The notes: a model not told the origin generated them from the letters alone. A stretch of DNA of 64,000 bases from Candidatus Saccharimonadales bacterium (GCA_044228525.1 JBGAUQ010000002.1:168367-232366), one strand, 5' to 3'; numbered from the stretch's first letter, positions 10,488-34,746 are shown. Numbers and translations are program-made.

Positions 10488-10605
10488 CCTTTACAACCTA
10501 AGCTATACTGCTGGTAATACAAAAACGCAAGGTTTTTAATCTTTCTTTAATCCTTGGCAAACAGCTACAGGATAACAGACACTAATTAACCGGAGGGTAA
10601 CAACT

Positions 10606-11152: not shown

Positions 11153-11578
11153 CTATGAAACTGCGTTTGTTGACGCGGTAAGCACATAGTGGACAATGAA
11201 CTGCGACAGAGCCACGATTATCAGACCGATGATGGCGTAAATAAGCGTGTTTTTAGCATTTCCAACCCGGCCACTGTCACCACCAGAAGTGATGTAGCGG
11301 AAGCCGCCGTAAATGATCATGATGATCGCGACTATACCAACAAGCAGTGAAATAAGGTTCACGATTTTTGCCGCTAGGGCCTTTAGATCATCATTGTTAT
11401 CGCCACCGGCACTACAACTAGCATCACCACCACCGGCTGCTGCGTTTGTCCCGGTACAAAGACCTTTGGTTATATTGTTGTCTTCAGCCGCGTAGACTGA
11501 AACTGGCGCGAGCGCTGGTGCAGAAACACCCAGCAACAGTGCCATGCTGACTAGGGCAAGTTTTATTTTTTGGATCAT
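11153..11578 (-). CDS. T4SS pilin-like protein (VirB2/TrbC-type two-helix hairpin), paralog 1 of 6
   Basis: Signal peptide ending VYA|AED and one Cys pair (C-x13-C). Then helix, 'GGFRYITSGGDSGRVGNAKN', helix. Confidence 0.7.
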   Translation of the reverse strand: MIQKIKLALVSMALLLGVSAPALAPVSVYAAEDNNITKGLCTGTNAAAGGGDASCSAGGDNNDDLKALAAKIVNLISLLVGIVAIIMIIYGGFRYITSGGDSGRVGNAKNTLIYAIIGLIIVALSQFIVHYVLTASTNAVS

Positions 11579-11646
11579 TGTTTAATGGACCTTTCTTTAC
11601 GTTTACTTAACTTATACTACATGCTTGTGCTTAGATCAAGCACGGG

Positions 11647-12084
11647 TTAAGGACTAGCTTTCTTAGTTGTCTTTGGCGGATCTGTCGCATTGGTTGCCTC
11701 GGTAAATACAAAGTGCACCATAAACTGCGCCAGCACAACTACCGCGACGCCAATTAGGGCGTATATCAACGCGTTCCTAGCGCTGGCCACCTTGCCGCTG
11801 TCACCCCCAGAGGTCATAAACCTAAATCCGCTGACAATAATCATGATTACCGCTACGATGCCGGCGATATAGCTGATGATTTTTATTATGCCTTGAATGG
11901 TACTTGTTACGGCCGTATCGTCACAATTATTCCCAGTTTGGCCAATGCCTTCATTGACTTTGGCTTTAGCGGAATTCTCGGCGCCACAGTTGTCTGTTGC
12001 AGCATAGCCAGTGCCGGCAAATGCAAAAGCGGGCGTTAGTCCTAGTACGATTAATGCCATGATTGTGATTATTTTTTGTTTCAT
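11647..12084 (-). CDS. T4SS pilin-like protein, paralog 2 of 6
   Basis: Signal peptide (AFAFA|GT) and one Cys pair (C-x20-C). Then helix, 'SGFRFMTSGGDSGKVASARN', helix. Confidence 0.7.
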   Translation of the reverse strand: MKQKIITIMALIVLGLTPAFAFAGTGYAATDNCGAENSAKAKVNEGIGQTGNNCDDTAVTSTIQGIIKIISYIAGIVAVIMIIVSGFRFMTSGGDSGKVASARNALIYALIGVAVVVLAQFMVHFVFTEATNATDPPKTTKKASP

Positions 12085-12093
12085 ATGTGCTCC

Positions 12094-12489
12094 TTATATT
12101 CTTGCGGTCACGAAAAGTATTATAGCGCGGGAAAGTATAATTATAACGATGCCGATAAGGGCATTGATGGTGGTATTTCTGGCGCTCTTGATTTTTTCTG
12201 AGTCACCACCGGCTGTCATAAACTTAATGCCACTGATTATTATGATAATCACAGCCGCGACACCCGCCATGATGGCTATGATATTTGCGACCTGTACTAA
12301 AATACCGTTGTTGCCAGATATGGGATCGATTGTAGTCCTACCTTGGCAGGCTGCTGATTTCGCCAGATCACCAGTACATACATCATTTGGATTTACTAAA
12401 GAGTTTGTCTCTGCGGCCAAAGCAGATATTCCGCTAAACATAACCACTGCAACCAACATTACCGACAATAGCATCGCGACGCGTTTCAT
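12094..12489 (-). CDS. T4SS pilin-like protein, paralog 3 of 6
   Basis: Signal peptide (ISALA|AE) and one Cys pair (C-x9-C). Then helix, 'SGIKFMTAGGDSEKIKSARN', helix. Confidence 0.7.
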   Translation of the reverse strand: MKRVAMLLSVMLVAVVMFSGISALAAETNSLVNPNDVCTGDLAKSAACQGRTTIDPISGNNGILVQVANIIAIMAGVAAVIIIIISGIKFMTAGGDSEKIKSARNTTINALIGIVIIILSRAIILFVTARI

Positions 12490-12779
12490 TTGATGTTGAT
12501 CCTGTTTACGACGAAAGCAACCAAAGCTTGTGCCGAGATCGCGACAACTAGTCCAATCAAAGCGTATATGATACCGCTGCGGGCAGTTGAGGCTTTTTGG
12601 GGGTCACCCGAAGAGGTTATATATTCAAAACCTGACTTTACGATCATCACTAGAGCTATGGCGCCGATTATGCCAAATACAATCCCCAAAATAATCTGAA
12701 TCGTGCTCGGGCCTGCAGAGACTTTAGGCAATGAATGTGGTGCAATTTCTGAAACCGCAATTATTAGTGTGTTTATCAT
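12486..12779 (-). CDS. T4SS pilin-like protein, paralog 4 of 6 (minimal, Cys-free)
   Basis: 97 aa with helix, 'SGFEYITSSGDPQKASTARS', helix. A 4-nt overlap links it to paralog 3. Confidence 0.65.
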   Translation of the reverse strand: MINTLIIAVSEIAPHSLPKVSAGPSTIQIILGIVFGIIGAIALVMIVKSGFEYITSSGDPQKASTARSGIIYALIGLVVAISAQALVAFVVNRINIK

Positions 12780-12792
12780 GCTTATTTCCCCG

Positions 12793-13323
12793 TTAGTTTA
12801 GCCTACTGCCAATAAATGTTACAAAAGCGACAGAAACAAGCGCTACCGCCAAACCTCCGAAGGCATTGATCAGAGTGGAGCGGGCTTTGGCTGTCTGCTC
12901 AGGGTTGCCACTGCTGGTCGTGTACTGAAAAGCGCCGACAAAGACAAAGGCAATAGCCACCATGCCGGCAATTCTGAGCAAATTATCTATAATCGCGAGC
13001 ATCAGAGCAGGCAAATCGCTGCTGGTCTTGCCGCACTCATTCGCCACAGACTGGTTAAATATGTTGAAGCACTTGAAATCACAGGGGGACGCTTCATTGG
13101 CATTGGTCCGGCTACCCGTGAATGATTTGTCCATGTAGTAATACCACGGCACCAGCCCAAAAAATGTTCGTTTGCAGTCGGCGGCGCTGGCTACTTCAGA
13201 GTTTCTGCCACCGTCCTTTGGTTGTACGGCTGATGCTTTTTGTGTCGTGACACCGACAATCCCGGCTACTAATATGGCCATGCATAACGCGGAAAATAAT
13301 ATCGGGAATACTCTTTTAATCAT
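12793..13323 (-). CDS. T4SS pilin-like protein, paralog 5 of 6 (extended ectodomain)
   Basis: Signal anchor, an ~80-aa ectodomain with four Cys, then helix, 'GAFQYTTSSGNPEQTAKARS', helix. Confidence 0.65.
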   Translation of the reverse strand: MIKRVFPILFSALCMAILVAGIVGVTTQKASAVQPKDGGRNSEVASAADCKRTFFGLVPWYYYMDKSFTGSRTNANEASPCDFKCFNIFNQSVANECGKTSSDLPALMLAIIDNLLRIAGMVAIAFVFVGAFQYTTSSGNPEQTAKARSTLINAFGGLAVALVSVAFVTFIGSRLN

Positions 13324-14162
13324 GTCTTAAACAATCCTCCGGGGATTAGGAACTGCAAGAACGAGAATAGCAGCAGATAGGCAATAATTGCCAGCAGGGT
13401 ATTGCTGATACGCTTTTTTGCCTCAGACACTTTTTGCGGGTCACCGGCAGACGCCGAGTATTGAATACCGCCCATAATTAACGACGCGATCGCGATTAGT
13501 CCAAAGATGGCAGTCACGGCTTCAATCGCTGGATTTACATACTTTTTAATCAAGTCGCAGCTGTTTTTTGTGCATTTTTGGTTGGCGTCGCTAGGGCAGC
13601 CTTGCGGCAATGGCTGATTGGCGTTGGCGGCTGCCGTGCAGGCGGCCGGGTCAACCGTGGACTCAATTTTAGCGTTACAGATTTCATCACCGCTCTCACA
13701 GGTTCCTTCGGGGTCCTCATCGACTCCAAACCCTGTGGCAGCCTTTGTGCGACTACCGCCTTCGGCATCAAGCACCGCGTCGAGATTCTTTTTGAAGGCC
13801 GTGACGCTGGCGGGAGTTTTGTCCTTTGCCAAAGCTTTTGTAAAATATGCTTTAGCCTTATCTGTGACACAGCTTTCTTTTACTTCAGCGTCCTTACAAT
13901 GATGCGTCGCGACCGTACGGGCGTAGCCCACATATTTGCCGTCACATACCGAATCAACATTTGTGGGCAGAATTATTCTACAGTCTTGCACTGTTTGGCT
14001 TGGACCCCGAGTACCAGGATCGGTAGGAATAGGTTCAGCGCCCGTTTTGGGAGTAATCACGACAGTAAACAACGCTAAAAATATAATAAGCAACCCAACT
14101 AGCGCTGCTACACGGTGTTTGCTGACGATACTCAGCCGGTTTTTTGAAGTTGTACTTGTCAT
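13320..14162 (-). CDS. T4SS pilin-like protein, paralog 6 of 6 (large Cys-rich ectodomain)
   Basis: N-terminal TM anchor, an ~170-aa ectodomain with ten Cys, then helix, 'GGIQYSASAGDPQKVSEAKK', helix. A 4-nt overlap links it to paralog 5. Confidence 0.6.
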   Translation of the reverse strand: MTSTTSKNRLSIVSKHRVAALVGLLIIFLALFTVVITPKTGAEPIPTDPGTRGPSQTVQDCRIILPTNVDSVCDGKYVGYARTVATHHCKDAEVKESCVTDKAKAYFTKALAKDKTPASVTAFKKNLDAVLDAEGGSRTKAATGFGVDEDPEGTCESGDEICNAKIESTVDPAACTAAANANQPLPQGCPSDANQKCTKNSCDLIKKYVNPAIEAVTAIFGLIAIASLIMGGIQYSASAGDPQKVSEAKKRISNTLLAIIAYLLLFSFLQFLIPGGLFKT

Positions 14163-14291
14163 TATTGTTTTGTTTTAGACGCTTATGCTCCATATTATGC
14201 GTCTGGAGGCGGTCTTTTGCAAGTCGATCGCTGATAAGAGATGCCGCCACTATACCGCTTGTGCTATAGTATTGGTAAAAATGAACAGCGT

Positions 14292-16691
14292 ATGAAAAGA
14301 AAATTATTGTATCTTGTACCCCTTATCGCCTTCGCCTTTATAACTATTGGCACGACTTTTGTGACACCAGCGACAGTTTATGCCGTTGAACCTAATGCGT
14401 CTGAATCAGATCCTGGCGCAAATGTTTCGCCACAGATCGAGTGTCCAAAATTTTCTTTTGATCTAGCCTGGGCATTTTGCCCCGTCATGAAGGCGATGGC
14501 TTTTTCTGTCGCTTCGATGGACAATTTCATAAACAAAGAGATGACTGTGGGCAGCAGCAATGACAGCAGCAATCCCAATCAGATATTTTGCGATAGTCAG
14601 TCCAGCGGCCAGGCCCTAAAGAGCTGTACCGCCTACCATAACGCCTGGACCAGCGTGCGTAACATCGCTCTTGGTCTAATGGGAATTTCGATCATTATCG
14701 TCTTGATTGCTCAGGCATTGGGCTTTGAGTTTCTCGACGCCTATACCATTCGCAAGGTGTTGCCACGACTCTTGATTTCAGCAGTCGGCATAACTTTGTC
14801 ATGGCAATTGATGCAGTTCTTCGTAACTCTATCGAACGATCTGGCCTATGGCATCAGGGTAATTATTTACCAGCCGTTCGTTGATTTTGGTGATGTAACC
14901 CTCGGCAATGGAATTTTTGGTAGTGGCACGGTCGCCAGCTTGTTGGCTATCGGAGCTCTGACGGCCTTGGGCTGGATTGGTCTGCTTAGCTATCTCTTAA
15001 CAGCCTTGTTGGCAGTATTTATTGCTTTGCTAGTACTAATCCTGCGACAGATGCTAATAATTGTCTTAATTATAATGGCGCCTATCGCCATAGCTTGTTA
15101 CGTGCTGCCTAACACCCAGAAAGTTTACAAACTCTGGTGGGAATCATTCAGCAAAGCACTCTTGATGTTCGTCATGATCGCCGCTTTGATCGCCGTTGGT
15201 CGCGTCTTCTCGGTAGTAGCCCTGACTAGCACCACCGGTACTATCGGACAATTGGTCGGTTTTGCGGCGTATTTCTTACCGTATTTCTTGATCCCAGCCA
15301 CCTTCAAATTCGCCGGTTCGGCCATGAGCCAGATTGGTGGCTTCGTCAACGACCGTGGCAAAGGCGGCTTCGACCGTCTACGCGGCTACCGCGGTAATGT
15401 CGCCAAAAAGAATATGAGCGACCTGGCTACAGGGAATCGTCTGCACAACGAGAGCACTCGCTTCTTAGGTTATGGTCGGTTTGCAAGGGGCTTTAACCGA
15501 GCCACCCGCAACACTGCCAACCTGCAAAATGCCGGATACAATCCTCGGCGCATGCGTGAACGTATGCGAGCCGCTTCAGGCACGGCGATTGTGAACCAAG
15601 CCAACGAAGCCGCCGAAAAGAACGAGGCCTTTAAGACCTTGCTCGGCAATGACGACGTCATGGAGGCCGCACTTTATGAATCTATCCACGGCGGCGGTGA
15701 AGCAACCATCCGTTCTATATTGCGAGAGCGCGGCTTCAAAGAAGACATGGTCTCAAATGCTGTCGGCGCCTTTCACAATGCCAAGAATTCTATGGGCACG
15801 GAAGCCTTCAAGACGGCACTTGCGGTTCACAGCTTCGGTACCAGTAGCGGTTGGACGCCTCGTTACAAAAAGAACGCCGCGACCGGGAATTACATTGATG
15901 CGAACGGTAATGATATCGCTGGTGGCGAACAGGGAGATGTCAGCTTGCGCGTGCTAGCGCGCGGTGGCGGCGGTGCGGGTGAGGCCCGCGCGGCAATAGA
16001 TTCCGTTGCTGGCAATGACCGTCTACGCATGATTTCAATGCTTGGCCAAGCCAGGCAGCAAGCCGAATCCAAGGGTCGATTCGATCTAGTTGGTGGCAGC
16101 TTCACCCAAGACGTTCTTAACATGGAAAGATTCCACACTGGGCAGCTTGGCGGTGTCACGCTAGGTCCTAACGGTGAGCCAAGCGGCATACAAACCCTGA
16201 CCAAGCTAACTCATGAGGGCGCGATCGACGGCCAAGCCCGACACCGCATCGCCTCCGGTCACCGCCGCTCGATGGACGCCCTGGCGCCAGAGTTCCGCAA
16301 GGCTATCGAAGCTTCACTATATAACTCCAAGGGACAGGACGGCTGGTCAGCTGACGAAGGGGTCGCCCAGCTAGCCTTTATAGCCAACTCGCTTGACGCC
16401 GCCTCAAACGGCGCGCCAGAGAACGCTCGCGTCATCAAACAGCAAGTCCTTGATCAAACGATAGACGTCAAAAATATGCCTTCCGAAATGGTCCAGGCCA
16501 TCGCCAATACGCCTCAAAAGGCCGAATGGCTGGCCTCGCAAGACAGTGTCACTATCGGCTCACTGATGGAGCAGATGCGTACCGACCCAAGCTTCTCCAG
16601 GTATCGCCGCGAATACAACCGTCCAGAGGATAGCCGACTGGCTGGCACGGCGGCTGAGCTCGAAGCCCAGCAGCAACAAGGCAAGCCTTAA
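14292..16691 (+). CDS. VirB6/TrbL-like polytopic T4SS channel protein with a long hydrophilic C-terminal domain
   Basis: Signal peptide MKRKLLYLVPLIAFAFITIGTTFVTPATVYA when started at 14292 (the listed ORF begins at 14241). About 6-7 hydrophobic spans occupy aa ~130-370, followed by ~430 hydrophilic residues. It is divergent from the pilin operon. The call rests on topology plus context, not on a sharp motif. Confidence 0.55.
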   Translation: MKRKLLYLVPLIAFAFITIGTTFVTPATVYAVEPNASESDPGANVSPQIECPKFSFDLAWAFCPVMKAMAFSVASMDNFINKEMTVGSSNDSSNPNQIFCDSQSSGQALKSCTAYHNAWTSVRNIALGLMGISIIIVLIAQALGFEFLDAYTIRKVLPRLLISAVGITLSWQLMQFFVTLSNDLAYGIRVIIYQPFVDFGDVTLGNGIFGSGTVASLLAIGALTALGWIGLLSYLLTALLAVFIALLVLILRQMLIIVLIIMAPIAIACYVLPNTQKVYKLWWESFSKALLMFVMIAALIAVGRVFSVVALTSTTGTIGQLVGFAAYFLPYFLIPATFKFAGSAMSQIGGFVNDRGKGGFDRLRGYRGNVAKKNMSDLATGNRLHNESTRFLGYGRFARGFNRATRNTANLQNAGYNPRRMRERMRAASGTAIVNQANEAAEKNEAFKTLLGNDDVMEAALYESIHGGGEATIRSILRERGFKEDMVSNAVGAFHNAKNSMGTEAFKTALAVHSFGTSSGWTPRYKKNAATGNYIDANGNDIAGGEQGDVSLRVLARGGGGAGEARAAIDSVAGNDRLRMISMLGQARQQAESKGRFDLVGGSFTQDVLNMERFHTGQLGGVTLGPNGEPSGIQTLTKLTHEGAIDGQARHRIASGHRRSMDALAPEFRKAIEASLYNSKGQDGWSADEGVAQLAFIANSLDAASNGAPENARVIKQQVLDQTIDVKNMPSEMVQAIANTPQKAEWLASQDSVTIGSLMEQMRTDPSFSRYRREYNRPEDSRLAGTAAELEAQQQQGKP

Positions 16692-16705
16692 AGCGGGTTT
16701 ACGGA

Positions 16706-18433
16706 TTATCGACCAAAGAAGTCAGGTCGTAAGTGTGGAGGTATTAATCCCTCCATTGGGTTAGGTGAGCCGGCTGGCACCGTTTCTTGACCAAGAGCAT
16801 ATAGCGCGTTAGCTAGGGCGATTAGCTTAGTAACTTCAACGTCGGTATTGTCGCCTTCAGGCTTATCGCTGCGCGTCCAACGATCGATCGCGTCTTCACC
16901 ATACTGACCAAGGCTGCCCATGCGGCTGCCAACTCCAACTACGGCTGGGCGATCAGTACGACTACCTGGCTGTTGACCAGGGATCCTGACTTCCATACCA
17001 CCACCCCAAGAACGAGCTTTTTGCCCTTTCTTGGCTGGCTTTTCGATGATTAGGTCGGCGTCACGGTTGCGGTTCGGGCTAGTAGTCTTGATATATATCT
17101 GGTCGCCTTCCATCGTGAAGTTCAGAACCCAGCCGGTTGTAACATCAACCAGTTGTGATCGATCAGTTTTACGGTCATGGTTAACTTGGCCTTTGGCGAC
17201 CTGAGCTGGATCAACCGCGCGACGTCGCAAGCCAGCCAGACGAGCCACGTTTGGACGACCTGGCAAGCGAGGCTGAAATACTTTGATCTCAGTTTCGATG
17301 GCAGGCGAAGAGACGTCGGCGAGAGCGTCAATCATTACGTTAACACGCTCAAGAGCAATTCGACGCTGTTCACGCGCATCCATTCGTTCCCATTCCTCAT
17401 GACCCAAGTTGTGGCCAACGAGACGGCCCTCATGAGTATCAGTTGTCGGGTAGACGCCAGCTAGTTCAGGAGGTGTGCCTTCGGGAATCAACCCGCCGAG
17501 CCCAACAAAGTGCATCGTGGCTCGACCGGCCTTGCGGCGACGGACTGCCCATGGGTTTTCTTGGTCACTGCGTCGTTCGCCGTGTGGGCGTGGAGCTGTG
17601 CGGGTCGCTAGTGGAATCAGGGCATCAACAGCGTCAAATGGGTCAGCGCCGCGATTAGGCCGATCAGCGAGTGGCAGCGGGCTTGGGCTGACTTCGCCGC
17701 GTGTTTCAACTTTAGAAATTATGATTCGGTTATGAGGGTCGTTGCCGCGATGACCAGGGAAGATTGTGCGGCCTTCGCTATCGATCCACTCTTCGCCAAT
17801 TCGACCCTGCAATATGTCCTTGCCGATTTTGCGCTGCGGCAGGGCAGAGCCGTCATCACCACGAACCGTTCTATGCAACGGAATGCTGGTTGGGAAGTCA
17901 CGGAAATCAGCCGGCGCTCCGGCAGCTTCTGCGGCAGTTAGGTCATAAACTCGTGAGCCAAAGATGTAATATCGGTTGGCTGGAGTGCCGTCCTCATGGC
18001 TGGTAGTAACGATGTACTCTTGGTCCATCGATTGGTCGCCCCACTTCATTACAGCGCCTTCGGAATCTTCTAAATTCCACTCCGTACCACGTCGTACCGT
18101 GCCGTCAGCGCGATCGTATTGAACTGGGACTTCGTCTTCAAAAGGACTCTCGTAATCTTGTCGTTCAGGCTTGCCAGTTAGTGGATTTAATTTTTTCTCA
18201 GAAGGCCTAAAGCCCTCACCCTCACGGCGACGCTTCAGCTCAGCACGAACTTCGAACTGATTTTCAGTCAGCATTTCGAGCTCATAAGGAGTAAGCTCTT
18301 GCATATTAGTTTTTTTAGTTGCTGGATCAAAAATAGGAACGTAGCCAGTGCCATGCGGATCAAACTGAATCAAATCCCTGACCGATTGAGGGTCTGTAGG
18401 GGTGGTTGAGCCGGGGCGTGGTGCGCGTTCCAT
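16706..18433 (-). CDS. hypothetical 575-aa soluble, Arg/Glu/Pro/Gly-rich protein
   Basis: A long uninterrupted ORF in the most GC-rich part of the window. It has no signal peptide, no TM span and no motif I can assign. Confidence 0.5.
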   Translation of the reverse strand: MERAPRPGSTTPTDPQSVRDLIQFDPHGTGYVPIFDPATKKTNMQELTPYELEMLTENQFEVRAELKRRREGEGFRPSEKKLNPLTGKPERQDYESPFEDEVPVQYDRADGTVRRGTEWNLEDSEGAVMKWGDQSMDQEYIVTTSHEDGTPANRYYIFGSRVYDLTAAEAAGAPADFRDFPTSIPLHRTVRGDDGSALPQRKIGKDILQGRIGEEWIDSEGRTIFPGHRGNDPHNRIIISKVETRGEVSPSPLPLADRPNRGADPFDAVDALIPLATRTAPRPHGERRSDQENPWAVRRRKAGRATMHFVGLGGLIPEGTPPELAGVYPTTDTHEGRLVGHNLGHEEWERMDAREQRRIALERVNVMIDALADVSSPAIETEIKVFQPRLPGRPNVARLAGLRRRAVDPAQVAKGQVNHDRKTDRSQLVDVTTGWVLNFTMEGDQIYIKTTSPNRNRDADLIIEKPAKKGQKARSWGGGMEVRIPGQQPGSRTDRPAVVGVGSRMGSLGQYGEDAIDRWTRSDKPEGDNTDVEVTKLIALANALYALGQETVPAGSPNPMEGLIPPHLRPDFFGR

Positions 18434-18571
18434 GATTATTTACCGCTTGCCTTGTTTAATATGTTTTTTGTTTTATGCATATGTTTATCCGATAGTTATC
18501 TTAGCAAATTATACTGTTTTTGTCAAGTATGTGGGTTTGTTGTTTTTTTGATTTGTTATACTTATGGTTAG

Positions 18572-19564: not shown

Positions 19565-19613
19565 TCCGCCAGCCGGACTTAATGCTTATCAGAAACAAAG
19601 GTGGGAACTGTAA

Positions 19614-20507: not shown

Positions 20508-20509
20508 CT

Positions 20510-22438: not shown

Positions 22439-22505
22439 CAATTAGTGCTTTCTGACCACAGTTAGCGTATAATGTAAACTACTAATGCTTTAGGTTGAGA
22501 CAAAA

Positions 22506-25500
22506 ATGGCAAGAGCCGCCAGAAAAAAAGACCCCGTCTATGATCCCGACTCCGACAGACCGATAACCCGGCCTGACCTAAGAGTCATGGAAGGCGGCGG
22601 TCAAGGTGACGGTGTGCCCCAAGGCAACCTCAGCGCTGCCAGCTCGGATTCTGCTTCAGGCGGTCTGTATAACGAGGGCGGCGATAAAGGTGGCGCAGAT
22701 CCCGACTCAAGCGGAAATCAATCCGAGGGTGATGGATCGAGTGAATCCGGCCAGTCCAGTGACGCTGTTGCGCCTGACGACCTAGAATCTAAAGAATCTA
22801 CTGGTGATTCTGGCTACGCTAACGGCTTTGATAACAACCGCCCCAACCGACGAGCCCGCGCCGGCGCCTTCGCCAAACGTAACAAAAACAAGCTAATCTG
22901 GGGCACAGCGGCCGGTGGAGGTATTTTTGGCTTAATTATCGGGGCGATGATCAGCTTGGTGCCTTTAAAAATCGAAAACATGGTTAACAATCTCGAGCAG
23001 CGCTTCATGCATCCGGTAAGCAGCGCAGTTGAGGCAACTAACCGGATTCTCCTAAGCAAATATCTACAAAAACACGTTCTGCCGGCCTATAAAAACTGCG
23101 GAACAGTAATCGATAAAAATTGTAAGATCCTGGTTACAGGCCCGGGCAATCCAGTCAAAAATTTATATAAATCATGGGCAAAAACCAGGCTCGATCTTAC
23201 CCTTAAAAACAAATATGGCATTGAGGTTAGTTATGACCAGTTTGCCAGAAACGGTAGAGGTACATTTATCTTGAGGATAGATGGACAAAACCGGAATTTT
23301 GACGTGGGGCCCAACGGCGAACAGCTCGACACCCTACTGACAGGGAGGAGATCGGACGTTACAGATGAAGTCGACCGTGTTCTGTTAAGAGAAACAAAAT
23401 GGAGACATATGATCGCCCGCTATAAGGTGGGCAGATTGATGACGCAGCTTCACAACACAAAGCGATGTATTGCCTTTTGTGGGGTGCGCGAAACAGTCAA
23501 AATGCCCAAAAAATACCTAGAGCAGCAGGCCAGGATGTTCCTAGCTGAGAGGGTTCTGGGCACACGGAGCGAAGCAACAGTAATCGCCTTACGGTGCGTA
23601 TTGTCAACCACGTGTCACCCGGAACAGGTTGACAGAACACAGTGTACTCCGGGAGTAGATTGTGAGCTTGACGGTAGACCCTTATCTGATACAGAGAGGG
23701 ATATGAGAACAGAGCTACAAAGACTAAGTGCCGGCTTTGGCAGAAATCAGCAAGACGAAATATTCCGGATTTATGGAGAAATGCGCGAGGAAGGTCTCCA
23801 AAAATATATGGTCAGGACCGTTATGACCAAGGTCTTTAATGAAGCAACGGGTAAGGTTGCCGCAAAGTCCATACCTATAATCGGCTGGATGCAAACATAT
23901 GCAGAAGTCGTAAATGGCGCATACGAAGCTGGGCCAAAAATTAAAAAACTTAGTTATGTAGTTGCAGCGGGGGCCGCAGTCCAACACTGGAACAACTACC
24001 GCTCCTACGCAGATGAAATACACACAGGCGAAGTCGACCCTATTGCTGTTGGTTCATGGAATACTTCGCTTGGCCGCGGAGAGGAAAGTGACAAAGACCC
24101 TTTAATTGGAGGGACGGCCGCGGCCGAAGAGACTCCATTGTATGGTGCTTTGATGAACAATGCTGATACTCCCGCACCGTCGGCAGTCGCTTCGCTGCTT
24201 GGCGCATTCCTGCCTGCAAGGGCATACGCGGCAACTGCCGACAACTCTGGCTCAGCCGGTAACCCAGATTATGTATGTGGCAACAACAAGCCGGTGCCTT
24301 CTGGCCAACTTGTCTGTTCAGAGGAACTGATCGGGCAGGGGAACGGGGTTGCAAACTCTGTTCGAGATTTTCTTGAAAGGCCTGAGGCACAACCGTTCGT
24401 TTTAATTGCAAAAGCATGGAAAAATACTGGCGGCTTAGCTTTCGATGCTTTCTATAGTGCTACTGGCTTCGTAGGAGATTTTTTATCGGCAGGTTTTGAG
24501 CAAGCACTTGAGAAAGGTTGCGGAAAAGTCCTCGGGATCCGACCTGCAGACGTTCCACCCTTCAGCGCGCTTGGTGCAGGTCCTGTTTGCGAAGTAAAAG
24601 ATCTTGCTGAACAATACCTGCCACAGGCAATCGAAGCCGCAACTAACTATCTTATTCCGAATCCATTCGGAACAAATATGGGAGGCGGCAGAAATTTTGA
24701 CATGATTGCAGCGGGCGCCAATGTTCAAGGCCTTGATGGCTGTGATCAAATCGGCTGCGAGGCTTCTTCGGATGCCGCTGTCGCGCAGGTAACCCAAGAT
24801 GCGATGAATAAAGAACGTGACATGTTCAAGAAAGAGTCCTTAGCGACTCGGCTGTTTGATACGGAAAGCAGCCATTCTCTTGTAACCCAAGTTGCTATGG
24901 CAACGCCGTTTGATATTCAGGGATCCTTGCAGTCTGGGTTTGCAAGCGTACTAAGCAACCCGATGGGCACCTTAGCTGGGGGCTTTGATTCCGTATTCTC
25001 ATCCGGCAAGGCCTACGCCGCCTCGGCAAAAGCGGCAAATCCATTCGGGGCAGGAGCGAAAACTTTTCCGACTAAAAAGATACCCAAAGACCCTGAGCAG
25101 TACTGGATAGACAATAATTGTGGCGACGAAAGTGAAGACGGGCCGGTTGCTAGGTGGCAAGAAGCCTCCATAAATACAACCGATGATGCCACCGGCATGC
25201 CTAAACACACAGATGTTGAACCATGCCTGCTAATTAAATACACGACAGGTGTAGTCGGGGGCAAAGAAGACACTTCTCTGCTGACAAAGGATGACTTGGC
25301 TGAGATCGGTCCCAGCTCAGGGGACAATGCGGCAGATCCATCTACCGTATCTGGCGAACCTGCTAAATTGGCCAAGGAGCTTATCAGCTCGGGCCGACTA
25401 ACTGGGCCTTCTAAATACATGGATCAAATTAAGGCAGTTTCGGAAGGCGATAACTCCTGCAATGTTAATCCCACGCTTCTCCAAATGCTATACGGGGTTG

Positions 25501-25835
25501 TGGTTAGCGATGGTCATAAGGTAGAAATTAGTTCCTTGAATAGGAAGTGCACCAACAGCCTAGCTGGCGCGGGATCAAATAGTGCCCACTTCAAAGACGG
25601 CGGCGGTCACGCCGTTGATGTTGTTGGCTTTGATGGCGGGTCTGTGGCTGGAGGTAGCGGTGATGCTACTCTTAAATATCTTAAGGCGGCTTCGAAGTAC
25701 TTACCAAAAGGCACCAGCTACGGTCAAGTTCCTAACTGCGGATCGGGTTTTAAGATTCCCGAGGGATCGAGCGCGTTCAGTGAAGACAGCTGCGACCACC
25801 AACACATTGGCGTGCCAGTAAAGCAGCTAGAGTAA
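22506..25835 (+). CDS. giant bitopic T4SS-associated protein; C-terminal LAS/M15-like metallopeptidase-type module (tentative)
   Basis: An ~125-aa G/S/D-rich cytoplasmic N-terminus, one TM (LIWGTAAGGGIFGLIIGAMISLVPL) and an ~950-aa ectodomain. The last ~120 aa carry 'SSLNRKCTNSLAGAGSNSAHFKDGGGHAVDV' and a terminal 'CDHQHIGV'. These resemble SxHxxGxAxD ... HxH zinc-peptidase motifs, but the spacing is non-canonical. Confidence 0.55.
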   Translation: MARAARKKDPVYDPDSDRPITRPDLRVMEGGGQGDGVPQGNLSAASSDSASGGLYNEGGDKGGADPDSSGNQSEGDGSSESGQSSDAVAPDDLESKESTGDSGYANGFDNNRPNRRARAGAFAKRNKNKLIWGTAAGGGIFGLIIGAMISLVPLKIENMVNNLEQRFMHPVSSAVEATNRILLSKYLQKHVLPAYKNCGTVIDKNCKILVTGPGNPVKNLYKSWAKTRLDLTLKNKYGIEVSYDQFARNGRGTFILRIDGQNRNFDVGPNGEQLDTLLTGRRSDVTDEVDRVLLRETKWRHMIARYKVGRLMTQLHNTKRCIAFCGVRETVKMPKKYLEQQARMFLAERVLGTRSEATVIALRCVLSTTCHPEQVDRTQCTPGVDCELDGRPLSDTERDMRTELQRLSAGFGRNQQDEIFRIYGEMREEGLQKYMVRTVMTKVFNEATGKVAAKSIPIIGWMQTYAEVVNGAYEAGPKIKKLSYVVAAGAAVQHWNNYRSYADEIHTGEVDPIAVGSWNTSLGRGEESDKDPLIGGTAAAEETPLYGALMNNADTPAPSAVASLLGAFLPARAYAATADNSGSAGNPDYVCGNNKPVPSGQLVCSEELIGQGNGVANSVRDFLERPEAQPFVLIAKAWKNTGGLAFDAFYSATGFVGDFLSAGFEQALEKGCGKVLGIRPADVPPFSALGAGPVCEVKDLAEQYLPQAIEAATNYLIPNPFGTNMGGGRNFDMIAAGANVQGLDGCDQIGCEASSDAAVAQVTQDAMNKERDMFKKESLATRLFDTESSHSLVTQVAMATPFDIQGSLQSGFASVLSNPMGTLAGGFDSVFSSGKAYAASAKAANPFGAGAKTFPTKKIPKDPEQYWIDNNCGDESEDGPVARWQEASINTTDDATGMPKHTDVEPCLLIKYTTGVVGGKEDTSLLTKDDLAEIGPSSGDNAADPSTVSGEPAKLAKELISSGRLTGPSKYMDQIKAVSEGDNSCNVNPTLLQMLYGVVVSDGHKVEISSLNRKCTNSLAGAGSNSAHFKDGGGHAVDVVGFDGGSVAGGSGDATLKYLKAASKYLPKGTSYGQVPNCGSGFKIPEGSSAFSEDSCDHQHIGVPVKQLE

Positions 25836-25845
25836 ACAATGCCGT

Positions 25846-28800
25846 ATGAATATATCTCGTAATTATACTTGTCCAAAAGGGATCATCCGGAAATGCTTCA
25901 GCCAGCGTTTTGTGTTTGCTTTGCTTGCTTTGCTAATGGCGTGTAACGTCGTATTGCCCGCAGCATATGCCGTACAGGCTGATGGTCCATTGCCGGAATC
26001 TGAAAAAAAGGCACTCGACAATTTCACGCACTGGGTAGGTGTTTGTGGCAGCGACATTTCAGTTGGGGACGCAATCACGGAAGCCGCTAGCATTACACCA
26101 GGTCCGATATATATAATGGGCGACTCAATAACAAATTCGGCTAAAAACTCATACAAAAATAAGTTTAAAAGTCCCTGGAAGCCTACAGTGGAAGGGCTTG
26201 ATAGTCGCCAGATCACAGGATCAAGACCCAGTCCTAGCGGGATTGGTCAAATCCAAAAAGACAAAACCAAGATTGGCGAGGCATCCGCAATCGTTATAGC
26301 TCTCGGCACGAACGGCGTGACTAACCCGGCAGCTACGACAACAGCGCAAGTCAAACAATTTATGGAAAAACTGAAGCCTCTTAACAAAAAAAATGCTCCT
26401 GTGTTTTGGGTAAACGTCATCGACAGCAAGCGCGATGCGGCATCCAAAACAACCAACAAGGCGATTGAGGAGGCCGTAGGCAATGACGCTACGATTATCG
26501 ACTGGTACACTGCCGCTAAGTCAGGCGCGAGCTTGAGCTCATTTGAGTCTGGCATACATCCGACAAAGCAAGAAGATATTTATCTATTGGTGAACACTGT
26601 TTATGAAGCAGTTTCCCAGGCAGCGCCTCCGACAACTGCCGCTGCCGCGAGCCCAGCCACTCCAACTAACGGCCCTGTTAGCACCACCAAACCAACGCCG
26701 AGCACAAACATTAAAGTCGGCGATGCCTTTAAAGGCACAGCGTCTAATTATGGTTGGGACCCTGTTACCAAATACGTAGATCCCAATGACGCGAATGATC
26801 CGGCTTCCGGCATAAGTAATGATAATCCTGGCATTGCCGTATATAACCGCGGCACTCTCAAAGGCTATTGGCTAGTTACAACCGAGGATGGCAAGAGCGC
26901 TATATTACAGCAGACTGACGTAGGGCCTGGCAGCGTAAACGCCTTTATTGATATCAATACCGTAGCCGTTCGATCAGTTTTTGGTATGGAACAAGGAAAC
27001 TCATTTCTAAAGAAGAATTGGACCTTTAAGTATCTCGGCAAAGATAAGCCAGCCGGCGCAATCACTACCGATTCTGGTAAGAAGGAAGATCGAACATCTG
27101 CAAATCCAGAATCCGCTGCTGCTGCCCCAGCACAAACAGCCCAGTTATGCTGCCCGACTTCAACAGAGAACGGTGACGCCGCCCTCGTCGGAGGAGATAA
27201 ACCTGAAAAAGTTTACAACTTTTTTGTAGGTAAGGGGCTTAAGCCTTACCAGGCAGCCGGAATCATGGGTAATATTCAGCACGAATCTGGTTTTGAGCCA
27301 AAAAAGATTGAAGGCGGTAAGCTCAGCGAAGATCCGGCGGATGCTGGGACTGGTGGATACGGTATTGTTCAGTTCACCGCCGGTAACGGCGAGCAGTCAA
27401 AAACCAAGGTAGACGGCATAATTGAAGCAGCTGGCATCACAGGCGCGCCGCATGAGCTTCAAACACAGCTTGAAATGATCTGGGCGCAATTGGAAGGCAA
27501 GGCCGGTAAATGGTCCGAGGAACAGGCAGGCAAAGACATAAAGGCGAGTAAAAACGTCGAGGACGCGACTCGGGCCTGGCAAGGCGATAACCGGGCAGGC
27601 GGTAGCTACATTGGATACGAGCGTCCCGCATCTCAGACAGGAAGCCTGCAAAAGAGAATAAAAGCCGCTAGGGGTTACCTAACTAAGTATGGCAGTGGCG
27701 GCAGTCCGGCGGCAGACGCGGCCGCCAACGACCCCAATGCCCCCGAGCCATCGCCCTCCATACAAGGGTCAGACGCATCGGTTGTTTGCTGTCCACCTGA
27801 AGGCAGCCTCGGGACAGGCGAACCCGTCGAAGACGGCTCACCCGCTGATTGGAAAAAAATGTATACTGGCGCCAACAAGGCCAAAGTCGACCGTATGGCC
27901 CGTGGCAAAATTACTCCAAATACCTTGGTAATTCACTATACAGTTGGCTCACAAGAAGGACAGGCCTTACTAGACTTTTTCACGTCTGGCGGTAGAGTAA
28001 CCGGTATTCAGTTTAATGTTGGCAAGGACGGACAAGTCTACCAGTATTACCCCTTAAATGATATGCAAAAGGTTAATCACGTTGGCAACGCCAACGCTAA
28101 GTCGATCGGCATCGAAATTACCGGTATGGATGTAACTGAAATTATTAATAACGAGAAGCAGTTCCAGGCTGTTGCCGCATTGTCTAAGTTCCTTTGCGAC
28201 AAATATCAAATTCCTTGCTCACAGCCTAAGGGCGACATTACTGGTGACGGTATCGAAGGCATGCAAGGCATGATAGGTCACGACGAGACACCGACTAATG
28301 ACCACACTGACCCAGACGCCACAAAGGCAGAAGCAACAAAAGGCATAGACCGAACCGATTCGAGCAAGCACCCCTACATGAAGAAGCTTCGTACCGCGCT
28401 GGGCTTTGATCCTACTCCAGGCAAACAAGGCGGTGGCGCAAGTGAAGCCGCAGTAACCGACCCATCAACAAATGGTCAGTGCGCCGGAAACGATTCCGCA
28501 AGCGGCACGGGCACAAAAGAAAATCCTGTAGGTGAAGGCCCAAATAAATCGCTGGCACTGGAAGCCGTTAAGTATGACACTAAAGCGAATGACAATAAGT
28601 ACACCTATAAAATGGGTGGGCTCCATGGACCACTGTCTCAGCTAAAAGCTTTCGCACAGAATGGCGGTGAAGCCGACTGTAGTGGTTTTGTAAGATACGT
28701 TATCTGGAAGGTTTATGGCCATGATGTCGGTAGTTTTGTTACCCAAGACTTACCTGGAAACAAGAACTTCCGGGAAGTCGCAGCAGCGGACGTAGCAGCT

Positions 28801-28980
28801 GGCGACATTGGGTGGAGAAGCGAACACGTTGATTTTATTACCGAGAATAAGGGTGGAGGTAAGCTCCACCAGTTCGGCGCCCACTCTACAGCTAACGACC
28901 TTTATGGCGGGGACATACCAGCCAGTGGCTACACTAAGTATTACCGCTATGTCGGCCCTAAGGGTGGAGGAGGTCAGTAG
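25846..28980 (+). CDS. five-domain secreted/anchored peptidoglycan hydrolase (SGNH esterase, RlpA-like DPBB, phage-tail-lysozyme-like, Amidase_2, NlpC/P60)
   Basis: Signal anchor, then five modules. (1) 'IYIMGDSITNS', 'ALGTNG' and 'GIHPT' give SGNH blocks I/III/V. (2) 'GTASNYGWDP...QQTDVGPG...IDIN' is RlpA-like DPBB. (3) 'YQAAGIMGNIQHESGFEP...GYGIVQFT' is lysozyme-like. (4) 'LVIHYTVG', 'NHVGNANAKSIGIEITG' and 'GHDET..DHTDP' indicate a MurNAc-L-Ala amidase. (5) 'YKMGG...ADCSGFVRYVIW...GDIGWRSEHVDFI' is NlpC/P60. Confidence 0.8.
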   Translation: MNISRNYTCPKGIIRKCFSQRFVFALLALLMACNVVLPAAYAVQADGPLPESEKKALDNFTHWVGVCGSDISVGDAITEAASITPGPIYIMGDSITNSAKNSYKNKFKSPWKPTVEGLDSRQITGSRPSPSGIGQIQKDKTKIGEASAIVIALGTNGVTNPAATTTAQVKQFMEKLKPLNKKNAPVFWVNVIDSKRDAASKTTNKAIEEAVGNDATIIDWYTAAKSGASLSSFESGIHPTKQEDIYLLVNTVYEAVSQAAPPTTAAAASPATPTNGPVSTTKPTPSTNIKVGDAFKGTASNYGWDPVTKYVDPNDANDPASGISNDNPGIAVYNRGTLKGYWLVTTEDGKSAILQQTDVGPGSVNAFIDINTVAVRSVFGMEQGNSFLKKNWTFKYLGKDKPAGAITTDSGKKEDRTSANPESAAAAPAQTAQLCCPTSTENGDAALVGGDKPEKVYNFFVGKGLKPYQAAGIMGNIQHESGFEPKKIEGGKLSEDPADAGTGGYGIVQFTAGNGEQSKTKVDGIIEAAGITGAPHELQTQLEMIWAQLEGKAGKWSEEQAGKDIKASKNVEDATRAWQGDNRAGGSYIGYERPASQTGSLQKRIKAARGYLTKYGSGGSPAADAAANDPNAPEPSPSIQGSDASVVCCPPEGSLGTGEPVEDGSPADWKKMYTGANKAKVDRMARGKITPNTLVIHYTVGSQEGQALLDFFTSGGRVTGIQFNVGKDGQVYQYYPLNDMQKVNHVGNANAKSIGIEITGMDVTEIINNEKQFQAVAALSKFLCDKYQIPCSQPKGDITGDGIEGMQGMIGHDETPTNDHTDPDATKAEATKGIDRTDSSKHPYMKKLRTALGFDPTPGKQGGGASEAAVTDPSTNGQCAGNDSASGTGTKENPVGEGPNKSLALEAVKYDTKANDNKYTYKMGGLHGPLSQLKAFAQNGGEADCSGFVRYVIWKVYGHDVGSFVTQDLPGNKNFREVAAADVAAGDIGWRSEHVDFITENKGGGKLHQFGAHSTANDLYGGDIPASGYTKYYRYVGPKGGGGQ

Positions 28981-28982
28981 CT

Positions 28983-29564
28983 ATGAGGATAAACAAGAAG
29001 CTACTTCTCGTAATATTTATTGTATTTGTATTTATAGGCGCCGGCTTATATTTACAAAAAAATACCGGTTCCAATAAAAGAGTTCTGACCGTCAATTCTA
29101 CTACTACGCCACTAACGCTTGAGCTAAATGACAGCACATATGTTATTGACGAAGATGGCCAGGAGATCTCGCTTGAACCTGGTATGTACTACTATAGAAC
29201 TAGCACTAAAATCGACGGTAAGCGTGTAGTTTTGGAGAATAAAATTGATCTCACTGACGAAAAGTCTGCTGAACTGAATTTAGATTTTTCGATATATGAC
29301 AACAAGTCTATTTCTGATGCTATTTGTAATAATTACGCTGAAGCGAAATGTCCGTTTCCGCCATCGAGCCTTAAAGTTACATACGTTGAAAAATATCAAT
29401 GGGCGGTGGTATTTATTGAAAGCCCTCAGCTCGGTGCATCTAAAGCAGTTCTCAACGTTGACCCATATACAGGTGGCTGGATTGTTGCCGGCGGACCAGA
29501 CACCGACCCAACATCAGGCTACTTCCCTGATTCCGTTGAAAGGGCATTAAACAATGCGCAATAA
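28983..29564 (+). CDS. bitopic membrane protein, unknown function (T4SS operon)
   Basis: N-terminal TM (LLLVIFIVFVFIGAGLYL) and a ~165-aa ectodomain. The start lies 2 nt after the hydrolase stop. Confidence 0.45.
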   Translation: MRINKKLLLVIFIVFVFIGAGLYLQKNTGSNKRVLTVNSTTTPLTLELNDSTYVIDEDGQEISLEPGMYYYRTSTKIDGKRVVLENKIDLTDEKSAELNLDFSIYDNKSISDAICNNYAEAKCPFPPSSLKVTYVEKYQWAVVFIESPQLGASKAVLNVDPYTGGWIVAGGPDTDPTSGYFPDSVERALNNAQ

Positions 29565-30897
29565 GAAAACCTTACTTATCCTTGCCGCGTTGTTGGCTAT
29601 CGGAGCGGCTGGATATTACCTTTACTCACACGCTAAGCCAACTAGGGAATACGGTAAGCTCAGTTCAAATCTTCAAAACTCGTATGTAATGAATGACTCG
29701 ATATACTTCTATACTGGGTCCTTTTTTGCCAAATATAACACCAATAACACTGTAACGAGGGTGAGTGATTATTTATATATTGCTAGTGGTATAAATAATG
29801 TTAGCTGGAAGCCCGATGCGGTTTTATTCCAAACAAATCCGCTTCCGCAAGATCGAGATGACATCACTACGGCGGCAAGCGGCTTAGGCTCACAACAATA
29901 CTCGCCTCAGTGGTGGAAATACAGCTTTAAAGACAAACAATATCAGCTGCTTAGCTTCGGCAATATTAGTGGCTGTAAGCTTGTAGCGCAGATAAATGAC
30001 ACTGAGCTCGCCTGTAGTAAAGAGCAAGAACCCGGCAGCAGCGCGACAGACCTATATCTATATGATCTATCGAGCAAAACTTCAAAAAAACTACTTAGCA
30101 GCGATAACCCAATCGATCAGTTGTCGGGTAGCGATAAAACCATTTATTACACCGAAACAAGACTGAGTGGAAAGCAGTCGCTGAAAGCAATTAGCACAAA
30201 ATCATCATCATCCCGACTATTGTATGAGGGGGCAGGTAATATCACATATGCTGTAGCGCCAAATAACGAGGTCCTTGTTAGTGATGCGCTCGGGTCTAAC
30301 GCGTCAGGCAAAACAACCAAAGATGACATATCTCATTCCGAAGAATCCAGTCCTGTAGCTAGCACACAAAAAATTGTATTAATAAATGGCGGTGAAGCCG
30401 TTGTCGAAAAGCAGTTCAAAAGCTTGCCGGTAACGGTTTTTGTGGGCAGTGCAGGGCAGCTAATGTATTCATCGCTAGACGGATCTGTAAATGCCGTTAC
30501 AGAGGACGGTATTGAAACTCTCGATAAAGCCACAAAAAATCAGCTTGAGACTGGCGATACATTGTATAAGCTAAACGAGCGGCTGTACCTAATAAATAAT
30601 AGAAATGAGTTGCTTACGTCACCAGACGATATCAACACAAGTCATCGTAGCCCGGGAAGTTTTGACGGTGTAAAAGACAATGATGACCGTAGCGACTCTT
30701 GGATAGATGACACAGACATGAATTCTCCTGGGGGTTATTTGTATTCAAATAGCGTGCCTTCGTCATTACAGCAATTAGAAATCGATAAGTGGTTGATTAA
30801 ACGCGGTTTTTGGCCATCGGAATTTAGCTTTACTTGGGTAGTAGACGGTGTGGATTTCAATGCGCCCGTCAGACCAAACTACGTAATTATCCAGTAG
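29554..30897 (+). CDS. bitopic membrane protein, possible beta-propeller ectodomain (T4SS operon)
   Basis: N-terminal TM (LLILAALLAIGAAGYYL). Repetitive beta-rich segments such as 'IYYTETRLSGKQSLKAIS' and 'ITYAVAPNNEVLVSD' recall TolB-like propellers. It overlaps the previous gene by 11 nt. Confidence 0.4.
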   Translation: MRNKKTLLILAALLAIGAAGYYLYSHAKPTREYGKLSSNLQNSYVMNDSIYFYTGSFFAKYNTNNTVTRVSDYLYIASGINNVSWKPDAVLFQTNPLPQDRDDITTAASGLGSQQYSPQWWKYSFKDKQYQLLSFGNISGCKLVAQINDTELACSKEQEPGSSATDLYLYDLSSKTSKKLLSSDNPIDQLSGSDKTIYYTETRLSGKQSLKAISTKSSSSRLLYEGAGNITYAVAPNNEVLVSDALGSNASGKTTKDDISHSEESSPVASTQKIVLINGGEAVVEKQFKSLPVTVFVGSAGQLMYSSLDGSVNAVTEDGIETLDKATKNQLETGDTLYKLNERLYLINNRNELLTSPDDINTSHRSPGSFDGVKDNDDRSDSWIDDTDMNSPGGYLYSNSVPSSLQQLEIDKWLIKRGFWPSEFSFTWVVDGVDFNAPVRPNYVIIQ

Positions 30898-31950: not shown

Positions 31951-31959
31951 TTATCTATT

Positions 31960-34710: not shown

Positions 34711-34746
34711 TTGTCCTCCTACTCGTAGCAAGTAACTATAAACCAA

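Follow-up and report, generated by a model that had tools for sequence, protein, structure and literature searches.

The closest described counterpart of the locus reported here is the "apparent T4SS (SEML1_0006-0019)" of Candidatus Southlakia epibionticum ML1, a type IV secretion system (T4SS) that resembles Gram-positive conjugative systems and has an essential pilin series and no recognizable coupling or relaxase proteins (Wang 2023; PMC10633639). When that species was subjected to transposon sequencing (Tn-seq), SEML1_0004-0011 and SEML1_0013-0019 were found to be essential, and SEML1_0012 non-essential (PMC10633639, supplementary tables). A subsequent survey of 2,474 virB4 genes assigned these systems an MPF-FATA ancestry, with a Patescibacteria clade beside MPF-FATA in the VirB4 tree, and described TrsD, PrgI, VirB6, VirB2 arrays of 2-11 genes and proximity to dnaA/dnaN (Quinonero-Coronel 2025; PMC12102498). 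The survey counted 109 relaxases in 103 Patescibacteria genomes, few of them near virB4, and recorded VirD4-like genes far from virB4 in many Patescibacteria (PMC12102498). In published accounts the system stands as the first T4SS reported to be essential for the survival of its bearer and as the only monoderm T4SS with VirB2 pilins; a FEMS 2025 review raises the speculation that exchange or uptake takes place through the pilus, and a 2026 preprint reports tubular structures, perhaps T4SS pili, where another Patescibacterium meets its host. Here we describe a T4SS locus at positions 11153-30897 of a 64,000-nucleotide stretch (hereafter, the window) from a Candidatus Saccharimonadales bacterium (GCA_044228525.1, JBGAUQ010000002.1:168367-232366).

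Fifteen contiguous genes make up the locus, and all 15 open reading frames (ORFs) were found where a preliminary description of the window had placed them (Table 1). The order of SEML1_0004-0019 mirrors that of the window gene for gene, from dnaA, dnaN and recF through the T4SS genes to hsp20. We believe, with a probability of roughly 0.85, that the locus is a vertically inherited chromosomal T4SS of Saccharibacteria, orthologous to SEML1_0004-0019, which descends from monoderm (MPF-FATA) conjugation machinery and serves host contact instead of conjugation. It is one more example of the known Saccharibacteria T4SS, whose composition, absence of a relaxase and a type IV coupling protein (T4CP), and proximity to dnaA have already been published. 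The novelty implied by the preliminary description does not hold, as both the content of the locus (PMC10633639) and its proximity to dnaA (PMC12102498) are in print. Nothing essential distinguishes it from the Patescibacteria-clade systems of the survey, to which it adds a further Saccharimonadia example (PMC12102498). Compared with S. epibionticum, differences are found in three kinds of gene. The slot between VirB6 and PrgI holds SEML1_0011 (998 aa) and SEML1_0012 (NTF2-like, non-essential) in that species and a single minus-strand protein of 575 aa here; the lysozyme protein there carries a second lysozyme-like (glucosaminidase, PF01832) domain and a Cys protease, and here an Amidase_2 and an NlpC/P60-like domain; and the gene adjoining recF encodes 249 aa there and 447 aa here.

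Table 1. Features of the window, their counterparts in S. epibionticum with the outcome of Tn-seq, and segments compared with the homologous locus L085
Feature	Position	Strand	Evidence or remark	Counterpart in S. epibionticum
comFC and hsp20, conserved flank	9801-11085	comFC -, hsp20 +	Pfam	
VirB2-type pilin paralog 1, 141 aa	11153-11578	-	T4SS_pilin 7.1e-17, TrbC 1.1e-6; signal peptide and two transmembrane (TM) helices	SEML1_0014-0019, six pilins (paralogs 1-6); essential
VirB2-type pilin paralog 2, 145 aa	11647-12084	-	T4SS_pilin 2e-14	
VirB2-type pilin paralog 3, 131 aa	12094-12489	-	T4SS_pilin 1.4e-7, 31.9 bits (cutoff 26.6)	
VirB2-type pilin paralog 4 (pil4), 97 aa	12486-12779	-	T4SS_pilin 8.2e-13; no long N-terminal extension	
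VirB2-type pilin paralog 5, 176 aa	12793-13323	-	T4SS_pilin 5.2e-8; extended N-terminal ectodomain	
VirB2-type pilin paralog 6 (pil6), 280 aa	13320-14162	-	T4SS_pilin 7.4e-8; long N-terminal ectodomain, ~180 aa	
Extended VirB6-like polytopic protein, 816 aa	14241-16691	+	Topology; precomputed Pfam on relatives	SEML1_0013, VirB6; essential
Soluble protein (orf575), 575 aa, proline-rich N-terminus	16706-18433	-	Local occupant of the VirB6-PrgI slot	SEML1_0011 and SEML1_0012, slot proteins; 0011 essential, 0012 not
PrgI/VirB3-like protein, 330 aa	18572-19564	+	Pfam PrgI 3.2e-12	SEML1_0010, PrgI; essential
TrsD-like protein, 297 aa	19614-20507	+	Stand-alone homolog of the VirB4 N-terminal domain	SEML1_0009, 293-aa protein; essential
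VirB4 ATPase, 642 aa	20510-22438	+	P-loop_TraG 1.8e-27, AAA_10, DUF87 (Pfam)	SEML1_0008, VirB4; essential
Bitopic protein, 1109 aa	22506-25835	+	C-terminal LAS/M15 (VanY-like) peptidase-type domain	SEML1_0007, 1113-aa protein, C-terminal Hedgehog/DD-peptidase fold; essential
Membrane-anchored multi-domain peptidoglycan hydrolase, 1044 aa	25846-28980	+	Lysozyme-like, MurNAc-L-Ala amidase, NlpC/P60-like	SEML1_0006, lysozyme and Cys-protease protein; essential
Bitopic protein (orf193), 193 aa	28983-29564	+	AlphaFold2 model, pLDDT (predicted local distance difference test) 81	SEML1_0005, PEGA/Ig-like exported protein; essential
Bitopic protein (orf447), 447 aa, last operon gene, adjoins recF	29554-30897	+	N-terminal TM helix	SEML1_0004, prealbumin-like protein; essential
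recF-dnaN-dnaA, conserved flank	30898-34746	-	Pfam; adjoins the T4SS genes in 40 of the 41 fully flanked species loci	
Probable oriC, upstream of dnaA	34757-34893		Three one-mismatch DnaA-box-like 9-mers within 137 bp, Poisson P ~2e-6	
hsp20 segment against L085	10500-10996		98-100% nucleotide identity	
Six pilins and first ~75 codons of VirB6 against L085	10997-14467		62-81% nucleotide identity	
Next part of VirB6 against L085	14468-15467		94-97% nucleotide identity	
Remaining locus through VirB4 against L085	15468-22438		97-100% nucleotide identity	

The closest relatives of VirB4 (81-97% identity) come almost entirely from metagenome-assembled genomes of Saccharibacteria/Saccharimonadales, which bears out the earlier view, formed without knowledge of the origin of the DNA, that the organism belongs to the candidate phyla radiation (CPR). 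Relatives of VirB4 at 86-97% identity number in the thousands, those with a source name being labelled Saccharibacteria, Saccharimonadales or Patescibacteria, and a close relative is present in at least 570 GTDB species representatives (one genome per species). One locus of the Saccharibacteria type (L012, DATLRC010000014.1), with a VirB4 87% identical to that of the window, is nevertheless labelled Candidatus Dormiibacterota, and its contig is probably mis-binned. Synteny was compared across 80 species loci, 41 of which have full 10-kb flanks. About 38 of these 41 retain the arrangement of genes beside recF-dnaN-dnaA. The conserved order is comFC, hsp20, five to nine pilins, the VirB6-like gene, a variable slot, PrgI, the TrsD-like gene and VirB4, followed by a protein of ~1,000 aa, the lysozyme protein, one or two small bitopic proteins, recF, dnaN and dnaA. 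comFC and hsp20 occupy the flank position in 19 and 24 of the 41 loci, respectively, counts that are limited by flank length, and the order of this flank is the same as in SEML1_0020/0021 of S. epibionticum. The retention of gene order and housekeeping flanks in about 38 of the 41 loci therefore supports a core, vertically inherited locus, the opposite of the patchy spread of an integrative and conjugative element (ICE).

A Pfam scan of the window ORFs of at least 120 aa revealed no coupling protein, relaxase, VirB11 or integrase among them, as claimed earlier. The T4SS-DNA_transf, TraG-D_C and TrwB families had no match on the candidate ORFs, the sole TrwB_AAD_bind match (0.046, on DnaA) being spurious, and a search of the window for direct repeats bracketing the locus returned only short repeats at chance level. 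The conserved housekeeping synteny and the lack of mobilization genes in the window support the proposal that the machine is chromosomally fixed and non-conjugative. Furthermore, the locus abuts recF with zero spacer, as had been described: the last nucleotide of orf447 is 30897, and 30898 is the first of the convergent recF ORF. The genes from PrgI to orf447 are tightly spaced, with gaps of at most 67 nt and one overlap.

Sequence conservation is uneven along the locus. Median identity across species is 85% for VirB4, 68% for the TrsD-like protein, 46% for PrgI, 35-47% for the pilins, 31% for the VirB6-like protein and 26-31% for the hydrolases, and the terminal bitopic proteins are undetectable by tblastn. 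Such a steep drop from cytoplasmic to exposed parts fits a host-facing surface.

The energizing and membrane components point to a core of Gram-positive type, a claim borne out by the CD1110-family VirB4, PrgI and TrsD-like matches. VirB4 exceeds the cutoff of the NCBIfam model conju_CD1110 (359 bits, cutoff 325), and its best NCBIfam models, CD1110 (C. difficile conjugative transposon, CTn) and VirB4_plasma, rank ahead of TraC-F and VirB4_CagE. The enzyme is a bona fide VirB4 ATPase and looks active, as predicted from intact Walker A (AKSGAGKS) and Walker B (LLLIDE) motifs. Its match to conju_CD1110 spans profile positions 185-733 only, and the 297-aa TrsD-like protein matches positions 9-79 of the same profile at E 1e-5, below cutoff; this division suggests that VirB4 is effectively encoded in two genes, as in pGO1-type systems, the N-terminal domain that the 642-aa protein lacks coming from the gene before it. 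The TrsD-like protein, which has a disordered Pro/Gln-rich N-terminus, also matches NCBIfam TrsD at E 2.4e-5 (24 bits, cutoff 200), and precomputed Pfam lists PF26593 TraC-like for a protein identical to it. Its description as a VirB4-N-domain-like protein is consistent with these matches to the N-terminal part of VirB4 models (E ~1e-5), which are sub-cutoff. The PrgI/VirB3-like assignment is firmer (47.3 bits, PrgI cutoff 27); the protein consists of an N-terminal TM hairpin (two helices, residues 16-65) and a C-terminal extension of ~240 aa.

The topology of the VirB6-like protein, which fits the assignment, comprises a signal/anchor segment, a loop outside the cell that contains Cys, about five TM helices and, at the C-terminus, a soluble tail of ~450 aa. 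SEML1_0013, annotated as TrbL/VirB6, is the ortholog of this protein by position; precomputed Pfam assigns PF19590 TrbL_3 to near-identical proteins, and four of 45 orthologs match Pfam TrbL. Local Pfam and NCBIfam scans of the protein itself returned no significant match, and a profile of the 45 orthologs found nothing among PDB sequences. The earlier assignment is plausible from topology and from TrbL_3 on near-identical proteins, the local Pfam scan having returned no match to the 816-aa protein. PF19590 and, for the TrsD-like protein, PF26593 are absent from the local Pfam-A hmmscan even at E 10, a mismatch with the precomputed annotation that is a library or version discrepancy and does not refute either assignment.

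All six VirB2-type pilin paralogs exceed the gathering score of Pfam T4SS_pilin (31.9-61.7 bits, cutoff 26.6; E from 7e-17 to 1.4e-7), in agreement with the preliminary description. These six consecutive minus-strand ORFs range from 97 to 280 aa, and in five of them an N-terminus resembling a signal peptide precedes two TM helices, pil4 having the two TM helices only. Their C-terminal cores are 25-62% identical to one another, the 62% being reached by paralogs 1 and 2 over the C-terminal 75 aa. pil6 is the first gene of the pilin operon, with a promoter-like site at 14222-14194, and a terminator-like site follows paralog 1 at 11123-11111. pil6 also passes NCBIfam Mbov_0395, a pilin-like conjugal transfer protein (40.8 bits, cutoff 40).

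The pilin array differs sharply between two strains whose sequences are 98-100% identical otherwise. When nucleotide identity was measured by region between the window and the homologous locus L085 (GCA_964589265.1, contig CAZPRC010000009.1), a block covering the six pilins and the start of VirB6 was found to be far more divergent than the sequence on either side (Table 1). Synonymous divergence (dS) of the pilins ranges from 1.6 to saturated, versus 0-0.13 in flanking genes. A 3.4-kb block of such low identity and high pilin dS amid near-identical flanks suggests either that the pilin array and the VirB6 N-terminus have been replaced by recombination, or that two coexisting haplotypes may have been merged in assembly.

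The two giant proteins encoded after VirB4 had been called wall-hydrolase-type, which is confirmed by direct Pfam domains for the 1044-aa protein and by an ortholog profile and motifs for the 1109-aa protein. The former, anchored at residues 22-40, contains Phage_lysozyme2 (3.6e-25, residues 454-615) and Amidase_2 (1.7e-17, residues 690-823), both above cutoff, and at its C-terminus a DCSGF motif is accompanied by a weak match to an NLP/P60 structure in PDB (E 0.0017). The latter has a 130-aa cytoplasmic N-terminus, one TM helix (131-149) and a large ectodomain. It has no direct Pfam match itself, and a direct phmmer search of its C-terminus against PDB gave noise only. Its link to VanY is made because a profile built from 49 positional orthologs retrieves structures of DD-/LD-carboxypeptidases of the VanY/LdcB type at 1.4e-9 and because its C-terminus carries the HxnD and HxH motifs (HFKDGGGHAVD and HQH); its ortholog SEML1_0007 has a Hedgehog/DD-peptidase fold. 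A VirB1-like peptidoglycan hydrolase is therefore present near virB4, judged by the Pfam domains of the one protein and the ortholog profile of the other. The catalytic domains differ between orthologs across species (VanY, M23, CHAP, Amidase_2, GDSL lipase; loci L001-L088). Among the 49 orthologs of the 1109-aa protein, Pfam recognizes VanY in 10, M23 in three, GDSL in two, and Amidase_2 and CHAP in one each, and the homologous locus L088 has a Beta-lactamase2 domain where the window has Amidase_2, though its VirB4 is 97% identical.

The last two genes of the locus encode bitopic proteins, each with a single N-terminal TM segment as described before. In the AlphaFold2 model of orf193, a TM helix leads into a beta-sandwich of PEGA/transthyretin type and a small alpha/beta domain; the positional ortholog of orf193, SEML1_0005, is PEGA/Ig-like and essential, and an iterative hidden Markov model (HMM) search found 58 ORFs of this family recurring at its position. 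We considered orf193 as the absent VirB8 and rejected it, the model being a beta-sandwich for which Foldseek gave only weak beta-sandwich matches and none to NTF2, VirB8, TraM or TcpC. orf447, with weak DUF5050/Kelch matches only, may be beta-propeller-like. It is 73% identical in the homologous locus L087; the protein is undetectable in the 80 species loci, and an iterative HMM search seeded with it found no relatives there.

The slot between VirB6 and PrgI is occupied in the window by orf575, which had been called an orphan soluble protein. It is indeed soluble, but it is not a strict orphan, as five homologs exist among 5.8e9 proteins and the three examined lie in the same slot. An exhaustive HMMER search added two partial matches only, one of which, next to a DDE transposase on a contig of 2 kb, carries no information. 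orf575 has no match in Pfam, NCBIfam or PHROG, and an iterative HMM search seeded with it found no relatives in the 80 species loci. VirB6 and PrgI flank the gene in each of the three contigs with a homolog that were examined, and orf575 is 53-66% identical to its homologs while the flanking VirB6 and PrgI genes on those contigs are 87-95% identical; it diverges much faster than its flanking genes. The GC content of its region is 56%. An AlphaFold2 model from a six-sequence alignment (pLDDT 52) was not used for fold search. An 18-nt inverted repeat (89% complementary) that brackets orf575 exactly, at 16675-16692 and 18439-18456, was attributed to chance, having no counterpart in the homologous loci L081-L083.

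In nearly every species, the slot contains a different, BLAST-unrelated protein (130-770 aa; loci L003-L078). Among 29 slot proteins, 28 have no TM segments, and the N-termini of slot proteins are rich in proline (17% Pro in residues 2-25 vs 3% in housekeeping proteins, p ~1e-17). Two species have housekeeping genes in the slot (L004:5392-7662, L026:5510-6940), one of them for AdoHcy hydrolase and PfkB kinase and the other for riboflavin biosynthesis; the slot therefore tolerates insertions. orf575 is a candidate substrate or cytoplasmic accessory protein, and the slot proteins could be a family of translocated effectors, or of substrate adaptors that replace the absent coupling protein.

Around the locus, a cluster of three DnaA-box-like sites upstream of dnaA probably marks oriC, which would place the origin ~3.9 kb from the locus end. 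Over the whole window DnaA boxes occur at chance level and only this cluster stands out; GC skew in the 64-kb window has no clear origin switch. At 1441-7492 lies a phage-like module, probably a prophage remnant, with a large terminase (Terminase_6C), a small-terminase-like helix-turn-helix (HTH) protein, two DNA methylases (one fused to ParB-N) and an XRE-type HTH protein with an M78/ImmA peptidase. nhaA, comFC and hsp20 lie between this module and the T4SS locus, which begins ~4 kb downstream of it. On the far side of dnaA, 37113-63900 is a large surface-glycan biosynthesis cluster with a Wzm/Wzt-type ABC exporter, many GT4 and GT2 glycosyltransferases, FkbM methyltransferases, GDP-mannose dehydratase-type enzymes, UDP-glucose dehydrogenase and two proteins (576 aa and 603 aa) without a family match; GC content falls to ~41% over 40-52 kb, within this cluster.

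The following working model is proposed for the machine. The VirB4 ATPase, in two pieces (the TrsD-like and 642-aa proteins), would be docked at the membrane by PrgI/VirB3 and the VirB6-like channel protein. It would power pilin extraction and polymerization, so that the six divergent VirB2-type pilins form a surface filament or conduit through the epibiont wall. The two anchored proteins of ~1,000 aa, with four kinds of peptidoglycan-cleaving domain (lysozyme, amidase, NlpC/P60-like and M15/VanY-like), would open the cell's own wall and probably that of the host, and the two small bitopic proteins may complete the extracytoplasmic part. The assembly would then mediate transfer between epibiont and host, either as protein export or as uptake of host material. 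We infer the pilus and the attack on the host wall from the genes. Protein export would have a precedent in the T4CP-less Ptl and Brucella systems, and import in ComB and Ced, to which the auxotrophies of the organism may be added. The earlier suggestion of a host-contact machine in a CPR cell is supported, essentiality for epibiotic growth being known from Tn-seq in S. epibionticum only.

Several points weigh against this interpretation. The locus is known here from its genes, which leaves pilus, channel and substrate hypothetical in this organism, and its essentiality is an extrapolation across genera. The VirB6-like and TrsD-like assignments derive from sub-threshold or precomputed matches that the local Pfam scan did not reproduce. 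A VirB8-like (NTF2-fold) component was not found in the locus, orf193 being modelled as a beta-sandwich. Finally, the analysis covers a 64-kb window, and a VirD4-like gene or a relaxase may lie elsewhere in the genome; in Patescibacteria, VirD4 homologs are commonly distant from virB4 (PMC12102498).

The homology of the core to Gram-positive conjugation systems would also be expected if the locus is, or recently was, an ICE whose relaxase, coupling protein and att sites lie beyond the window, and both the VirD4-like genes elsewhere in many Patescibacteria genomes (PMC12102498) and the phage-like module ~4 kb upstream could be cited in its favor. However, nhaA, comFC and hsp20 stand between that module and the locus. 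The same gene order with both housekeeping flanks in about 38 of 41 species, VirB4 identities of 81-97% across hundreds of species, which indicate vertical descent, the window's lack of an integrase, relaxase or bracketing direct repeats, and the small number of relaxases in Patescibacteria, few near virB4 (PMC12102498), have largely refuted an ICE, and we regard it as highly improbable. It is also unlikely that the locus builds nothing but an adhesive VirB2 pilus for host attachment, with no substrate translocated. Six pilins do dominate the locus, the array is apparently swapped between otherwise identical strains as with adhesins, and the window contains no T4CP. Yet adhesion and motility in Saccharibacteria are already served by two type IV pili (PMC12206443), a filament would not need four conserved wall-degrading domains plus a VirB6-like channel protein, and the hydrolases are individually essential in S. 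epibionticum.

A further question is the direction of transfer. In the manner of ComB or Ced, VirB4 and the pilus might import nucleic acids of the host, or other macromolecules that the epibiont is unable to synthesize, a possibility that we hold to be less likely than not. ComB- or Ced-type uptake needs neither T4CP nor relaxase, comFC is a conserved neighbor of the locus, and uptake through the pilus has been speculated upon (FEMS 2025 review); the 2026 preprint reports, together with its possible T4SS-pilus tubular structures, feeding on host RNA in another Patescibacterium. VirB4 has weak matches to CedB (4.8e-14) and CedD, but these are far below cutoffs and reflect the shared ATPase fold, and no nucleic-acid-binding component was identified in the locus. 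Moreover, loss of comEC in S. epibionticum abolishes competence without an effect on viability, whereas the T4SS is essential, and DNA uptake through ComEC therefore cannot explain T4SS essentiality. A host-contact T4SS inherited from monoderm conjugation machinery remains our preferred explanation.

The apparent swap of the pilin block, the turnover of slot proteins with shared Pro-rich N-termini and the shuffling of hydrolase domains lead us to suggest, tentatively and with more doubt than conviction, that the outward-facing parts of this host-contact T4SS are exchangeable host-specificity modules. The shuffling among VanY, M23, CHAP, amidase, GDSL lipase and beta-lactamase-like domains perhaps tracks host wall chemistry. 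We did not find the pilin-block swap, the unrelated slot proteins with proline-rich N-termini or the hydrolase shuffling in the accounts of Wang 2023, Quinonero-Coronel 2025 or the FEMS 2025 review. As already published and reviewed, the system is the foremost candidate for what physically joins CPR epibionts to their hosts, and the comparative details add modest leads, namely candidate host-range determinants and substrates that are testable in the tractable S. epibionticum.

Among characterized machines, the Gram-positive MPF-FATA systems (pCF10 Prg, pIP501 Tra, pGO1 Trs and C. difficile CTn CD1110) share with the locus the CD1110-family VirB4, PrgI/VirB3, putative TrsD-like and VirB6-like proteins and, right after VirB4, a large wall hydrolase of several domains. 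Unlike them, the window has neither relaxase nor T4CP, and no VirB8-like protein or PrgB-type adhesin was identified among the locus proteins; the locus has a VirB2 pilin array and two hydrolases instead of one, and it is chromosomal, core and origin-adjacent. Bordetella Ptl, Brucella VirB, Helicobacter pylori ComB and archaeal Ced are likewise VirB4-based without T4CP or relaxase and perform protein export or DNA import, but they are diderm or archaeal, have other accessory sets, and none is essential for growth of its bearer. The mycoplasma pilin-like protein Mbov_0395, whose model is passed by pil6, belongs to mobile ICEs, whereas the locus here is a core locus of a monoderm epibiont of bacteria. 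The VirB2 arrays of Bartonella and Anaplasma are tandem divergent paralogs as here, although the hosts there are eukaryotic cells.

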